Positions 21,602 to 24,280 of a stretch of DNA of 64,000 nt are shown here, in pieces. The translations under genes and the position numbers were made by a program. Source of the DNA: an uncultured bacterium (lineage in GTDB: Bacteria > Omnitrophota > Gorgyraeia > Ghiorseimicrobiales > Ghiorseimicrobiaceae); NCBI GenBank assembly GCA_913009335.1, contig CAJVXN010000001.1, positions 71,709 to 135,708 on the forward strand. The letters run 5' to 3'. Position 1 is the first letter of the stretch, and each line of letters starts with the position of its first letter. A model generated the notes under the pieces. The model was not told the origin of the DNA and did no database searches. It saw only the letters and a list, made by a program, of their open reading frames with translations.

Positions 21602-23821
21602 TTAACCGCTTTTACATATTTTATTGATTCTATTTCTCTCGCTACTAGTCAAATCTAAAAAACAGGCCGCGATTTCATACCTCTCGCCAAGAGTGTTTTC
21701 AGTAGCTCTGACTATTCTGGCCAAACACTCTATGGGCGCCTTGCGATCAAGTAGTTCAATCTTTAATTCCAAAAAGGAGCCTAAGGCATACGGCTCATCC
21801 GCAATGAATAAAACTCCCCCCGCGCTTATATCCTTCGTAACGCTAAAGTGTTCGGGGGCATCATCACGTTTAGATACCTCTAGTTTTGTGCGAAAAACCC
21901 TGTAGCTTATGTTTATCGTAGAATCCAAGCGAGAAAAAACCCTCTTATCTAAAAAACTTAAATCCGGTTTTCGCTGCTCTAGCGCATCGAGGTTATTTTC
22001 TCCTTTTTTTCCGTCTATTTCTATTTTTTCCGCTTCAGACGGATAATCTTGTTCAAATTGTAATGTATTAACGGCTGCCTGCCGGTTATCCGATGTTAAT
22101 AAAGAAGTATCGGACGGGGTCAATCGCATAACCTCTTCAGGGGTGGTGACTCCTGAAATCACCTTGGCCCAACCGTCATGACGCAAAGTACGCATACCTC
22201 TTTGTATAGCGAGATTTTTTATTTGATTTGTAGAAACACGTTTAATAACCAGATCCTTTATCGAATCATCAATCAATAAAATCTCATATACGGATGTCCG
22301 GCCAAAAAAACCGCTAAAATTGCACGTTTCGCATCCTTTACCGCGAAAAATCTTTACTTTACTTTCAGACTTTAATCCAAGCTCTTGAGCAATCTGCTTT
22401 TTAAGTTCAACTGCCGCGTCCTTATCCTCATATTTACAATGCGGACAAATAACGCGCAATAGACGCTGCGCGATAAAGGCTTCTACACTGGAGGCAACTA
22501 AATAAGGTTCCAGCCCTATATCAAGAAGCCTCGCGATACCGCTAGCCGCGTCATTAGTATGCAGAGTCGAGAAAACAAGATGGCCGGTTAAGGCAACGCG
22601 TATGGCAATTTCCGCGGTTTCTAAATCTCTTACTTCTCCAATCATCATTATATCAGGATCGTGCCTTAGAACACTACGCAGGCCCCGCGCAAAATCCAAA
22701 CCAATCTCCGGCATAACCTGTATCTGCGTTACCCCTGTCATCTCGCACTCAATGGGATCTTCTATGGTAATAATTTTACGATCCTTGGTATTGATCTTGC
22801 TTAAGCAGGCATATAAAGTCGTAGTCTTACCTGATCCTGTGGGACCGGTAACAAAAATAATGCCGTGAGGTTCTTGAATTAGTTTTTCGAAAACATCCAG
22901 ATCTATTTTCTGTAAACCCAGCTTTTCCAGGCTATGCAGCATCTGGGTGGGAAGTATTCTTATTACGACACTTTCGCCGAAAGGCGTAGGCATAGTAGAG
23001 ATTCTCAGATCAAGTACTTTATCCTGAATTCTAACCGAAGTCCTGCCATCTTGCGGAAGACGCCGTTCAACAATATTTAACCTGCACATAACCTTAATAC
23101 GTGAAATAATCGCGCTCAAAAAACTAGCCAGCTCATCAGAGGCTTTTACATCAAGAAGTACGCCGTCTATGCGATAACGCAAAGCAACTCCTCCCCGATA
23201 CGGTTCAATATGAATATCGGTAGCGCGTTTCTTATAGGCATCTGAGATTATCTGATTAACAAGTTTTATTACCGAAGCTGCTCCCGCTACCTTTTCGATA
23301 TCCTCAATTTTTCCGCGACCTTTATGGGTAACTTCCGGCACTGCTTCAACGCCTTCAGACGTAATTTTATCAAGTATGGCAGCCGTTGAGCCATAATACT
23401 TCCTAAGCCCCTCCAAAATATCATACTGACGGCAAAGGACTATTTCAATATTATAACCAAGCTGCATACGTATCTCATCTTTTGTCTTTATATCCAACGG
23501 ATATGAGACTGCTATGGTCAAAATATTAGCCTTAATTGCAAGCGGCAAAAAACTATAATAAGAAGCGACTTTTATGGGAATTTTACTGATAACCGACTTA
23601 TCTATAGAAGCTGTTCTTAAATCCGTATATTTTAACTTTAATTTCTTCGCCAGTATTTCTAAGATATCCCGCTCAACAACTATTTGCTTTTTAATCAAAA
23701 CATTATTTAAGGTAAGCTCGGAAAACTCAACTTCCGTTACAACCGAATCCAATACTTCTTTCGAAGCCAATCCTGACTCAATTAATGCCTCGTATAAAAT
23801 TTTATCGTATTTATTAATCAT
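21602..23821 (-). CDS. gspE: GspE/PilB-family secretion ATPase with C-terminal PilZ (c-di-GMP-binding) domain
   Basis: 739 aa. N-terminal GSPII_E_N-like region. Walker A is GPTGSGKTTTLYA. Tetracysteine motif CPHCKYEDKD...CETCNFSG. GspE C-terminus GMRTLRHDGWAKVISGVTTPEEVMRL. An extra ~180 aa carry PilZ motifs RVFSR (RxxxR) and TKDISAGGVLF (DxSxGG). Confidence 0.85.
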   Translation of the reverse strand: MINKYDKILYEALIESGLASKEVLDSVVTEVEFSELTLNNVLIKKQIVVERDILEILAKKLKLKYTDLRTASIDKSVISKIPIKVASYYSFLPLAIKANILTIAVSYPLDIKTKDEIRMQLGYNIEIVLCRQYDILEGLRKYYGSTAAILDKITSEGVEAVPEVTHKGRGKIEDIEKVAGAASVIKLVNQIISDAYKKRATDIHIEPYRGGVALRYRIDGVLLDVKASDELASFLSAIISRIKVMCRLNIVERRLPQDGRTSVRIQDKVLDLRISTMPTPFGESVVIRILPTQMLHSLEKLGLQKIDLDVFEKLIQEPHGIIFVTGPTGSGKTTTLYACLSKINTKDRKIITIEDPIECEMTGVTQIQVMPEIGLDFARGLRSVLRHDPDIMMIGEVRDLETAEIAIRVALTGHLVFSTLHTNDAASGIARLLDIGLEPYLVASSVEAFIAQRLLRVICPHCKYEDKDAAVELKKQIAQELGLKSESKVKIFRGKGCETCNFSGFFGRTSVYEILLIDDSIKDLVIKRVSTNQIKNLAIQRGMRTLRHDGWAKVISGVTTPEEVMRLTPSDTSLLTSDNRQAAVNTLQFEQDYPSEAEKIEIDGKKGENNLDALEQRKPDLSFLDKRVFSRLDSTINISYRVFRTKLEVSKRDDAPEHFSVTKDISAGGVLFIADEPYALGSFLELKIELLDRKAPIECLARIVRATENTLGERYEIAACFLDLTSSERNRINKICKSG

Positions 23822-23824
23822 CTT

Positions 23825-24280
23825 TTAAATATACTTCGCGCGGCTGTACTCACTATACCTGCGAACAAGCTCATTCATGTCGCTGCAAGATACCAAAACC
23901 AAATTTAGTTTAAGTCCTCCCGCGGCCATTTCAGCCTTTTTCAGCATCCAGACGTCTAAAGGATTAATTACAGCCATGGTTACCGAATAATTATCCCGAT
24001 GCGCGGGAAAACATTTAAAATCTAAAATCAATGAAGGATCAAATTTACCAACAAACTTCCAGTCAATATATTTATCTTTCATGCTCACATAGGGAATGCC
24101 GAATTGTTCCGAGAGCACAATCAATAGATCCTTTTCTTTAATTGCTCTTCTTTTTAATAATAATGCGCCTAAGAATTCATCAGTTCTCTTTTGCTCGGCT
24201 AGCGCTCCGTTTAATTGCTCTTGAGTTATCAAACCCTTTGCGATTAAAACCTCACCCAGTTGCTTCTGTTCTTTTTTCAT
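23825..24280 (-). CDS. Standalone MshEN-like (GspE N-terminal) domain protein, predicted c-di-GMP receptor
   Basis: 151 aa. Two tandem MshEN-type motifs: [24 protein letters not shown] and [25 protein letters not shown]. The start codon overlaps the atpD-like stop (ATGA). Confidence 0.7.

Follow-up and report, generated by a model that had tools for sequence, protein, structure and literature searches.

To our knowledge, control of the motors of type II secretion systems (T2SS) as well as of type IV pili by c-di-GMP is known only through an N-terminal MshEN domain or through separate adaptor proteins. In MshE, c-di-GMP is contacted by residues L10, G11, Q32, L39, G40, L54, L58, and Q61 (PMC5013675). 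The extended consensus of the 24-residue motif has been given as (R/K/L)LGxxhhxxGhhxxxxLxxxLxxQ, and nanomolar c-di-GMP binding is possible with a hydrophobic residue or Lys in first place (PMC11731258). In Xanthomonas citri, PilZ binds the N-terminal MshEN-fold domain of PilB (7LKO, PMC8389850). Within Omnitrophota, West-Roberts et al. (bioRxiv 10.1101/2023.11.21.568195) note small pilZ genes near giant genes; a term search of that paper returned no GspE-PilZ fusion, no stand-alone MshEN, and no instance of "ATP synthase." The literature searched contained no description of a GspE/PilB-PilZ fusion and none of c-di-GMP signaling in Omnitrophota.

Within the window, by which we mean the whole 64-kb stretch of Omnitrophota DNA analyzed, a gene for a GspE-type ATPase with a C-terminal PilZ domain is preceded by one for a stand-alone MshEN protein. 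Both open reading frames (ORFs) were found on the minus strand at exactly the coordinates listed below. A 3-nt gap lies between the MshEN gene and gspE, and the start of the MshEN gene overlaps the stop of atpD, the F-type ATPase beta-subunit gene, by 4 nt. We judge it probable (roughly 0.6) that this gene run forms the motor part of a pseudopilus machine akin to type II secretion that is seen repeatedly across the sampled Omnitrophota genomes and apparently takes c-di-GMP input at two points. The features concerned are as follows.

14384..21551, minus strand: T2SS-like apparatus, downstream (GspF, MA-clan peptidase, GspG, 152-aa protein, GspJ-like, GspK-like, PilM-PilN fusion at 14945-16426, PilO/GspM-like; domain matches)
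21602..23821, minus strand: GspE/PilB-family secretion ATPase with C-terminal PilZ, 739 aa (Pfam domains, best-homolog architecture)
21605..21934, minus strand: canonical PilZ domain, residues 630-739, beta strands and then a C-terminal helix (Pfam PilZ)
21815..21832, minus strand: (D/N)xSxxG motif DISAGG, D664-G669 (coordinates checked)
21929..21943, minus strand: RxxxR motif RVFSR, R627-R631, at the linker/PilZ junction (coordinates checked)
21935..22117, minus strand: acidic linker, residues 569-629, variable in length and predicted to be disordered (AF2 pLDDT <50 for residues 572-629)
22124..23287, minus strand: T2SSE ATPase core, residues 179-566 (Pfam T2SSE, 435 bits)
23381..23821, minus strand: N-terminal MshEN-fold domain of GspE with degenerate motif, residues 1-147 (Pfam MshEN)
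23825..24280, minus strand: stand-alone MshEN, 151 aa, with a predicted four-helix c-di-GMP-binding subdomain and an alpha/beta subdomain (Pfam, NF053729, AF2)
24104..24262, minus strand: 53-residue c-di-GMP motif, residues 7-59 of the free MshEN (coordinates checked)
24277..30212, minus strand: F-type ATPase operon, upstream (277-aa secreted/1-TM protein, 77-aa epsilon, c, b/delta fusion, alpha, gamma, beta; profile matches)
62486..63988, minus strand: GspD-like secretin, upstream of the giant gene and on the same strand (Pfam Secretin 170 bits, Secretin_N 69.5 bits)

The ATPase carries the Walker A sequence GPTGSGKT at residue 326 and a tetracysteine zinc motif (C459, C462, C497, and C500), and its T2SS context comprises GspF, GspG, minor pseudopilins, GspL/M-like proteins, and a secretin; GspG exceeded its TIGR01710 equivalog cutoff (141.7 versus 88.85). 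Foldseek comparison of the GspE model recovered GspE (4PHT) and PilB (5TSH/5ZFR) at 38-48% identity. The protein fell below the equivalog cutoffs for both GspE (TIGR02533, 573.7 versus 630.25 bits) and PilB (TIGR02538, 546.4 versus 675.65 bits). These scores identify it as a T2SSE-superfamily ATPase that is nearest to GspE, yet is neither a GspE nor a PilB equivalog. PF05157, PF00437, and PF07238 were all present in each of the best 120 database homologs (58-63% identity), so that the survey of relatives for GspE-PilZ fusions proposed in the first-pass annotation found the fusion throughout. The same three-domain architecture was displayed by three full-length cluster representatives retrieved with a profile of PilZ alone.

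That annotation, made from sequence without database searches, had also described a GspE tail of about 180 aa bearing RVFSR and DISAGG, and this was borne out. The sequence following the ATPase domain comprises 171 aa, divided between a linker of ~60 aa and a PilZ domain of ~110 aa, and Pfam PilZ (PF07238) matched residues 640-736 at 52.7 bits (gathering cutoff 22.5). About 26 linker residues are missing from at least 90% of the 120 homologs; PilZ was present in every GspE homolog examined. AF2 modeled the domain as six strands (636-721) with a short helix, followed by a helix at 726-738, with pLDDT of 71-89 per 10-residue block. Across 60 homologs, R627 and G669 were invariant, while R631, S666, A667, and G668 were at least 90% conserved. 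A search of the PDB with the single PilZ-tail sequence gave no match; the family profile matched the MotI/YpfA PilZ structure 5VX6 weakly (E 0.0016), with NISAGG aligned. For the full-length GspE-PilZ model, the 50 Foldseek matches listed were ATPases only, and AF2 yielded a pTM of 0.40 with no confident interdomain contact.

The 151-aa ORF upstream, claimed earlier to contain two tandem motifs and no ATPase, proved to contain both 24-residue motifs, parted by the canonical 5-residue spacer KRTDE, and to stop after the MshEN domain with neither an ATPase nor another output domain. It scored 37 bits against Pfam MshEN (PF05157; cutoff 23.1) and 54.7 bits against NCBIfam NF053729 ("c-di-GMP_motif, MshE-related"; cutoff 38), the latter over all 53 positions at residues 7-59. 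The Pfam check suggested at first pass thus placed PilZ and MshEN alike over their curated cutoffs, and because of these scores and of conservation in dozens of species, neither set of features is due to chance. The AF2 model (pLDDT 90.8) found its best Foldseek match in 5HTL, MshE with c-di-GMP (TM 0.82/0.88, rmsd 1.9 A), and the top matches, 5HTL and 8PDK (PilF GSPII-B), were c-di-GMP-bound states (TM 0.72-0.88). In phmmer, query residues 3-110 aligned with residues 5-112 of the 5HTL chain over equal lengths, and a constant offset of +2 was assumed for residue mapping. On this basis L8, G9, Q30, L37, G38, L52, L56, and Q59 of the free MshEN correspond, in order, to the eight MshE contact residues named above.

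Conservation within the family follows the same positions. The contact Leu, Gly, and Gln columns are invariant or at least 90% conserved and rank highest for conservation in the MshEN family. The window protein fits the extended consensus at the spacer and at all Leu, Gly(3), and Gln(24) positions; its first motif residue is Q in motif I, where most orthologs have R/K/L, and F in motif II. Where many orthologs have G, the usual turn residue, at position 10 of motif II, the window protein has R. All 47 orthologs matched NF053729 at E <= 0.001; they span 132-194 aa (most 145-165 aa), with PF05157 as the sole domain.

GspE itself contains a further MshEN match (PF05157, residues 62-147, 62.6 bits) that was absent from the first-pass annotation. 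This N-terminal domain aligns end to end with the free MshEN (26% identity, E 1e-13), and in that alignment the Gly of position 3 is replaced by Tyr10/Asn39 and the Gln of position 24 by Val31/Lys60. NF053729 scored it at 16.8 bits, under the cutoff of 38, and the best GspE N-domain among 60 family members reached E 2.3e-8, or ~33 bits by E-value conversion. The motif was degenerate in all 73 GspE sequences inspected; with its contacts lost, the domain probably keeps a docking role alone. Since the N-domain of GspE is degenerate but complete, the free MshEN is, as these alignments indicate, an additional paralogous module and not the lost N terminus of GspE. What had been proposed earlier, that c-di-GMP input was split from GspE into a separate MshEN and supplemented by a C-terminal PilZ, therefore holds in part: both modules are bona fide, have conserved contacts, and are tightly packed with the ATPase gene, but the MshEN was not split from GspE, which retains an N-terminal MshEN-fold domain. 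The free MshEN was found in 47 of 60 species; because the other 13 are without it, it is accessory and dispensable. No restored GspE N-domain motif was detected in these 13 species as compensation. One lineage encodes, in the same gene slot, a protein without an ATPase in which a GspE-N-like domain is joined to an intact MshEN; this fusion links both module types functionally.

Gene order (giant gene, F-type ATPase operon, MshEN, GspE-PilZ, GspF, pseudopilins) is conserved among the Omnitrophota genomes sampled, and the order of the downstream apparatus is colinear in related loci. All 53 loci with enough upstream sequence have atpD directly upstream of MshEN/GspE-PilZ. Across 46 loci, median gaps were 17 nt between beta and MshEN and 10.5 nt between MshEN and gspE, the latter gap ranging from -7 to +30 nt in most loci; five gaps of ~1.4 kb are believed to be script artifacts. 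Six loci have >200 nt of extra sequence between MshEN and gspE, and in two of them (L008 and L018) a receiver-domain match was found there. Assigning MshEN to either neighbor from gap asymmetry was rejected, the difference between the two gaps being too small. A promoter/terminator scan gave no more matches than were obtained in shuffled controls. The F-type ATPase operon beside GspE-PilZ lacks a gene for subunit a, and its c subunit is often without the ion-binding carboxylate, Glu being replaced by Gln in most species. Four proteins at the window edges, looked up to follow subunit a past the ends of the window, gave no database record. Its 77-aa epsilon consists of the N-terminal domain only; this gene heads the operon, which rules out MshEN as a stand-in for a missing ATP synthase epsilon.

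No active diguanylate cyclase was found in the 64-kb window. The HisKA-HATPase-GGDEF protein (10336-11865) was rejected as a local c-di-GMP source, since its GGDEF is degenerate and has no GG(D/E)EF motif (RRSDLVVSHFDEI); it carries the sole GGDEF-like domain of the window, in which there is no EAL protein either. The giant ORF has no GGDEF domain.

Several other explanations were weighed against the reading of a secretion motor with two c-di-GMP inputs. That an MshE-type ancestor lost its c-di-GMP-binding N terminus to a separate ORF by gene fission, with PilZ added as compensation, would fit the position of the MshEN gene, which is directly 5' of gspE and shares its strand, with small gaps in most loci, and the tandem N-terminal GSPII/MshEN domains of Thermus PilF (PMC11731258) make an ancestor with two MshEN domains conceivable. 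We nevertheless consider fission unlikely, because GspE still carries a complete N-terminal MshEN-fold domain, no longer fused form occurs among the best 120 homologs (702-753 aa), the GspE N-domain is degenerate in the same way where the free MshEN is absent, and the sole tandem protein found has the reverse domain order and no ATPase. To a similar degree it is improbable that PilZ, MshEN, or both are adaptors between proteins that scaffold the motor but are blind to c-di-GMP. PilZ and MshEN-fold domains that do not bind the ligand are well known (PMC8389850, PMC11731258), the window MshEN departs from the consensus at the first motif residue and at the turn of motif II, and there is no cyclase nearby; however, the invariant positions in both families are ligand-contact residues and not just fold-determining ones, and it is exactly those residues that known blind versions have lost, as has the GspE N-domain here.

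A little more doubtful again is a functional tie of the free MshEN to the F-type ATPase operon, perhaps through c-di-GMP-dependent regulation of that ATPase, with GspE no more than a neighbor. Its overlap with the atpD stop in the window and its constant place directly after beta would suit such a role, as would the extra sequence before gspE in six loci and the regulatory gap left by an epsilon cut down to its N-domain. Yet the gaps are small on both sides, in the literature searched MshEN has been described on secretion/pilus ATPases and glycosyltransferases and not on F-ATPases (PMC5013675), the lineage-specific fusion partner is a GspE-type N-domain and not an ATPase subunit, and the ATPase operon is kept in the 13 species without MshEN. 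A wider conjecture, to which we likewise give little credence, makes the whole colinear block one c-di-GMP-controlled surface machine composed of the 8471-aa giant surface protein, the 277-aa membrane protein, the F-type ATPase encoded without subunit a, MshEN, GspE-PilZ, and the pseudopilus. Here the rotary ATPase would have given up ion-coupled ATP synthesis and would instead help in deploying or powering the giant protein, with the MshEN/PilZ pair coordinating it with the secretion motor.

Returning to the favored reading, of a secretion motor with two c-di-GMP inputs, a mechanism can be proposed in which PilZ would act in cis, tethered to the ATPase C terminus by a disordered acidic linker of about 35-60 aa. 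Since RxxxR lies exactly at the linker/PilZ junction, ligand binding should render the tether end ordered and lead PilZ to dock on a partner surface. Candidate partners would be the ATPase ring or an MshEN-fold domain, compare the non-canonical PilZ on the Xanthomonas PilB N-domain, and docking may switch either ATPase activity or engagement of the motor with the PilM/GspL-like platform. In most species, a free MshEN of 150 aa is added in trans; its intact motif predicts high c-di-GMP affinity, and it is most likely a second c-di-GMP sensor, probably the one of higher affinity. At the platform it could mimic the GspE N-domain or pair with it; alternatively, it could bind PilZ. Motif and fold are the grounds on which c-di-GMP binding by PilZ and the free MshEN, their affinities and partners, and the direction of regulation are predicted here. 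The arrangement suggests that c-di-GMP directly switches the secretion machine, and it is reasonable to infer the tight gating of the motor anticipated at first pass.

Overall, we read GspE-PilZ with a usually preceding free MshEN as a new variant among c-di-GMP-controlled secretion/pilus ATPases, an arrangement of which the literature searched contained no description. This Omnitrophota lineage has a canonical PilZ hard-wired on the motor and a predicted MshEN sensor on a separate subunit. Like a natural "Rosetta stone," the pair would show how PilZ and MshEN folds talk to secretion ATPases. Few Omnitrophota have been cultured, and the locus offers a handle on how these ultra-small, probably predatory or host-dependent bacteria regulate a secretion system that lies beside giant surface proteins. 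PilZ and MshEN are small and easy to express, which makes the c-di-GMP prediction directly testable.

Among described systems, the T2SS-like locus by Omnitrophota giant genes (West-Roberts et al., bioRxiv 10.1101/2023.11.21.568195) belongs to the same phylum and displays the same association of a giant gene with gspD/E/F and a prolyl isomerase. V. cholerae MshE and related MshE/PilB/GspE-type ATPases (5HTL; PMC5013675, PMC4624772) share the ATPase superfamily and the 53-residue two-motif site; MshE binds through the N terminus of the ATPase itself, whereas here that domain is degenerate, the intact MshEN is separate, and a PilZ stands at the C terminus. Thermus thermophilus PilF (8PDK, 6EJF; PMC11731258) has three tandem GSPII/MshEN domains and, as here, a single motor bears MshEN-fold modules that are blind to the ligand (GSPII-A) beside others that bind it (GSPII-B and -C). 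The first motif residue of its GSPII-B is Lys/Leu, similar to Q/K/L and F in the Omnitrophota MshEN; all PilF modules are on one polypeptide without PilZ, whereas the binding module here is a separate gene product. In the X. citri PilB-PilZ-FimX complex (7LKO; PMC8389850), as in this locus, a PilZ fold is paired with a PilB-type ATPase whose MshEN-fold N-domain lacks c-di-GMP motifs. The Xanthomonas PilZ is separate, non-canonical, and does not bind ligand, c-di-GMP being read by FimX, while the PilZ here is canonical and fused, and no FimX-like protein was found in the locus. BcsA cellulose synthase, YcgR/MotI, and PilZ-DnaK exemplify C-terminal PilZ fusions by which an enzyme or motor is gated; their canonical PilZ, whose RxxxR lies at a flexible junction, acts on the attached or partner machine, as we propose for GspE-PilZ.

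All genes in the region lie on the minus strand, including the two reading frames considered here, and Pfam resolves the longer of these into three domains.

23825-24280, minus strand: free MshEN, 151 aa
21602-23821, minus strand: GspE-PilZ, 739 aa
GspE residues 62-147: MshEN/T2SSE_N domain, Pfam, 62.6 bits
GspE residues 179-566: T2SSE ATPase domain, Pfam, 435 bits
GspE residues 627-631: RVFSR motif
GspE residues 640-736: PilZ domain, Pfam, 52.7 bits (gathering cutoff, 22.5)
GspE residues 664-669: DISAGG motif

The free MshEN frame is separated from gspE by 3 nt, and 4 nt are shared between its start and the stop of the preceding gene. 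The first-pass annotation, made from the sequence alone, had placed canonical PilZ motifs on the GspE tail and identified the 151-aa frame as an MshEN protein. The Pfam models bear out both assignments, with scores above cutoff for PilZ and for MshEN (37 bits for the free protein; cutoff, 23.1). NF053729, an NCBIfam model of the MshE-type c-di-GMP motif with 53 positions, was also matched at all 53 positions by residues 7-59 of the free protein (54.7 bits; cutoff, 38). The annotation had further proposed that the MshEN input was split off GspE; this was not upheld, as GspE keeps its own MshEN-fold domain at the N-terminus, which the first reading had overlooked.

Free MshEN consists of two 24-residue motifs joined by the canonical 5-residue spacer KRTDE. 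Its residues 3-110 aligned in phmmer with chain residues 5-112 of V. cholerae MshE bound to c-di-GMP (5HTL), and because these spans have the same length, the MshE numbering was taken to run +2 ahead throughout. On this basis, L8, G9, Q30, L37, G38, L52, L56, and Q59 correspond to MshE L10, G11, Q32, L39, G40, L54, L58, and Q61, which supply the hydrophobic triangles, backbone-amide donors, and phosphate/ribose-binding glutamines (Wang et al., PMC5013675). In an alignment of 47 orthologs, L27, Q30, and L56 are invariant and G9, L12, L23, G38, L41, and Q59 are at least 90% conserved; the MshE contact positions fall among the invariant or ≥90% columns of the subdomain. Position 1 of motif I is Gln in the window's protein, with most orthologs having Arg, Lys, or Leu there; position 1 of motif II is Phe family-wide. 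These deviations are no argument against binding, since the consensus has been widened to (R/K/L)LG for Thermus PilF GSPII-B, where a hydrophobic first motif residue is accompanied by a Kd of ~6 nM and arginine is not needed (PMC11731258). Judged by its sequence, the stand-alone domain looks ligand-competent. An AlphaFold2 model built from the 47-sequence alignment had a mean pLDDT of 90.8, and its Foldseek hits included the PilB-PilZ structure.

GspE residues 1-147 align end to end with free MshEN (26% identity; E, 1e-13), with Tyr10 and Asn39 at the positions of the two contact glycines and Val31 and Lys60 at those of the two glutamines. Against NF053729, the window's GspE scored 16.8 bits (cutoff, 38), and the best E-value among 60 family members was 2.3e-8, or ~33 bits by E-value conversion, which is also below 38. 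All 73 N-termini of GspE, taken from the window and from related loci, show degenerate contacts. The N-domain has been retained in degenerate form, which does not support a c-di-GMP site split away from GspE; we conclude from these residues that the N-domain is a predicted ligand-blind MshEN-fold domain, like those of Xanthomonas PilB and PilF (GSPII-A), and that the intact module is an additional gene.

Across 60 aligned homologs, the PilZ tail never varies at R627 or G669, and conservation is at least 90% at R631, S666, A667, and G668. A tail profile matched B. subtilis MotI/YpfA (5VX6) weakly (E, 0.0016), with NISAGG aligned on NISAGG. The full-length AlphaFold model of GspE-PilZ (pLDDT, 68; pTM, 0.40) has a folded N-domain, a stretch below pLDDT 50 at residues 572-629, and a PilZ region of beta strands (636-721) and a C-terminal helix (726-738) with a pLDDT of 71-89 per 10-residue block. 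RxxxR falls exactly at the junction of linker and PilZ domain. This acidic linker varies in length, ~26 residues of the window's version being missing in at least 90% of 120 homologs. All 50 Foldseek matches listed for the whole model were GspE, PilB, or PilT structures (including 4PHT, 5TSH, and 5ZFR, at 38-48% identity), and the closest NCBIfam model was GspE (573.7 bits), followed by PilB (546.4 bits), both scores being below the equivalog cutoffs.

MshEN, T2SSE, and PilZ occur together in 120/120 of the best database homologs (58-63% identity), almost all of which their sources name Candidatus Omnitrophota or Omnitrophica. The PilZ-tail profile, run against 1.84 billion cluster representatives, gave full-length representatives of the same three-domain architecture (P0231, P0266, and P0276). 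It also brought up free PilZ proteins of 113-124 aa (P0178, P0183, P0204, P0213, and P0232) that closely resemble the fused tail in sequence and have intact motifs; these could be the products of the small pilZ genes described beside giant genes in Omnitrophota, and may be either source or offspring of the fusion. A PilZ-tail pattern scan of one genome per GTDB species yielded 127 confirmed stretches, 80 of which were kept. Their titles are almost all Omnitrophota, with a few Planctomycetia, Margulisiibacteriota, or Deltaproteobacteria; as these few show the same gene order wherever sequence suffices, we suspect faulty labels and not a spread beyond Omnitrophota.

The colinear order begins with a 277-aa protein, epsilon, c, b/delta, alpha, gamma, beta, and, in most loci, MshEN, and continues with GspE-PilZ, GspF, an MA-clan peptidase, GspG, a 152-aa protein, GspJ-like, GspK-like, PilM-PilN, and PilO-like. 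Of the loci with 2.5 kb or more in view, all 53 have atpD immediately upstream, and GspF follows GspE-PilZ within 600 nt in 55/59 loci. Free MshEN occurs in 47/60 loci; in the other 13, beta is followed after 12-174 nt by GspE-PilZ. Median gaps are 17 nt between beta and MshEN and 10.5 nt between MshEN and gspE. The MA-clan (M1-like) peptidase gene between GspF and GspG (19386-20330, minus strand), an unusual T2SS operon member, is kept in most related loci. Response-regulator/histidine-kinase matches occur at varying points of the cluster in several species (L008, 4104-4448; L018, 4745-5086; L049 and L060, ~12.4-14.7 kb), including between MshEN and GspE-PilZ, and the window has two kinase/regulator sets immediately 3' of the PilO-like gene. 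One histidine kinase (10336-11865, minus strand) ends in a degenerate GGDEF domain, with VSHFDEI replacing GG(D/E)EF and an RxxD-like RRSD just upstream, that may sense rather than make c-di-GMP.

Free MshEN joined to the GspE N-domain served as a chimeric query and returned proteins of 292-346 aa (P0328-P0330) that have no ATPase; in these, a degenerate, GspE-N-like MshEN domain precedes an intact one.

L081, 200-1240, plus strand: P0328, 346 aa

In this related locus, P0328 lies between another MshEN gene, cut at the contig end, and a complete GspE-PilZ. It is probably a kept tandem duplication of the segment comprising MshEN and GspE 1-175. Such a fusion links the two module types and fits a protein in which a GspE-like docking domain is presented alongside a c-di-GMP sensor.

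The F-type ATPase operon directly upstream (24277-30212, minus strand) looks non-canonical and adjoins the T2SS genes in 53/53 species with sequence in view. Its first gene encodes a 277-aa signal-peptide/single-TM protein without family match; epsilon, at the operon front, is a 77-aa N-terminal beta-sandwich only, and b and delta are fused. No subunit a gene was found in the operon or elsewhere in the 64-kb window. The c subunit (28880-29098, minus strand) has Q55 where solved c-rings have the ion-binding Glu (aligned to TE/SE of 9ITJ, 5FL7, and 2WPD); of 42 orthologs, 25 have Q here, 14 have E, and 3 have S/A/T, the rest of the protein being ~70% conserved. A homomeric Q-type c-ring should not translocate ions. 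Further upstream, a giant reading frame (30301-55716, minus strand; 8471 aa) has a signal/TM segment at its N-terminus and Ig-like repeats by the hundred; Pfam matched it only to Kre9_KNH, to Reelin subrepeat-B, and once, in isolation, to Flattop. Conservation of its last 800 aa, immediately 5' of the ATPase operon, extends to at least 36 related loci. In the window, the giant gene is itself preceded by a secretin and a cyclophilin-type isomerase, and between these and the giant gene lies the gene for a 422-aa protein (56642-57910, minus strand) in which predicted membrane segments come after an IS200-like Y1 transposase domain (48.7 bits). The layout of secretin, isomerase, and giant gene agrees with the T2SS-like locus described beside Omnitrophota giant genes by West-Roberts et al. 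(bioRxiv 10.1101/2023.11.21.568195); a term search of that paper gave no mention of a PilZ fusion or a free MshEN and no occurrence of "ATP synthase".

Fission of an ancestral ATPase, its N-terminus becoming the separate MshEN gene, is contradicted by two observations: GspE retains its N-domain, and none of the homologs examined is a longer fusion. A role of free MshEN in serving the F-type ATPase is compatible with the gene packing, which is all that speaks for it in this analysis. It is unlikely that the MshEN and PilZ modules are ligand-blind adaptors, as the conserved positions are ligand contacts.

We infer that the system is a T2SS-like pseudopilus machine, given a GspG above its equivalog cutoff, GspJ/K-like minor pseudopilins, GspL/M-like PilM-PilN, PilO, and the secretin. 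Its motor would take c-di-GMP input at the cis-tethered PilZ, present in all homologs examined, and in most species a second receptor would act in trans, free MshEN, with high affinity predicted from its motif. Typically, ligand orders the RxxxR loop of a PilZ domain and partner contacts change. In a Xanthomonas crystal structure of the PilB N-domain with PilZ, the PilZ fold docks on an MshEN-fold domain without c-di-GMP motifs, at a site adjoining the surface proposed to bind PilM (PMC8389850). On the strength of this precedent and of typical PilZ loop ordering, we favor a core switch in which c-di-GMP would make the tethered PilZ dock on the N-domain ring or the ATPase. Free MshEN would then be an accessory sensor, partnering or competing with the GspE N-domain at the platform.

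Automatic Pfam annotations of these proteins are already in databases; in the literature searched, we found no description of a canonical PilZ fused to a GspE/PilB-type ATPase together with a degenerate N-domain and a separate intact MshEN. The design is clean, recurs across the sampled Omnitrophota genomes, and is readily testable. It extends a known principle and does not break one.
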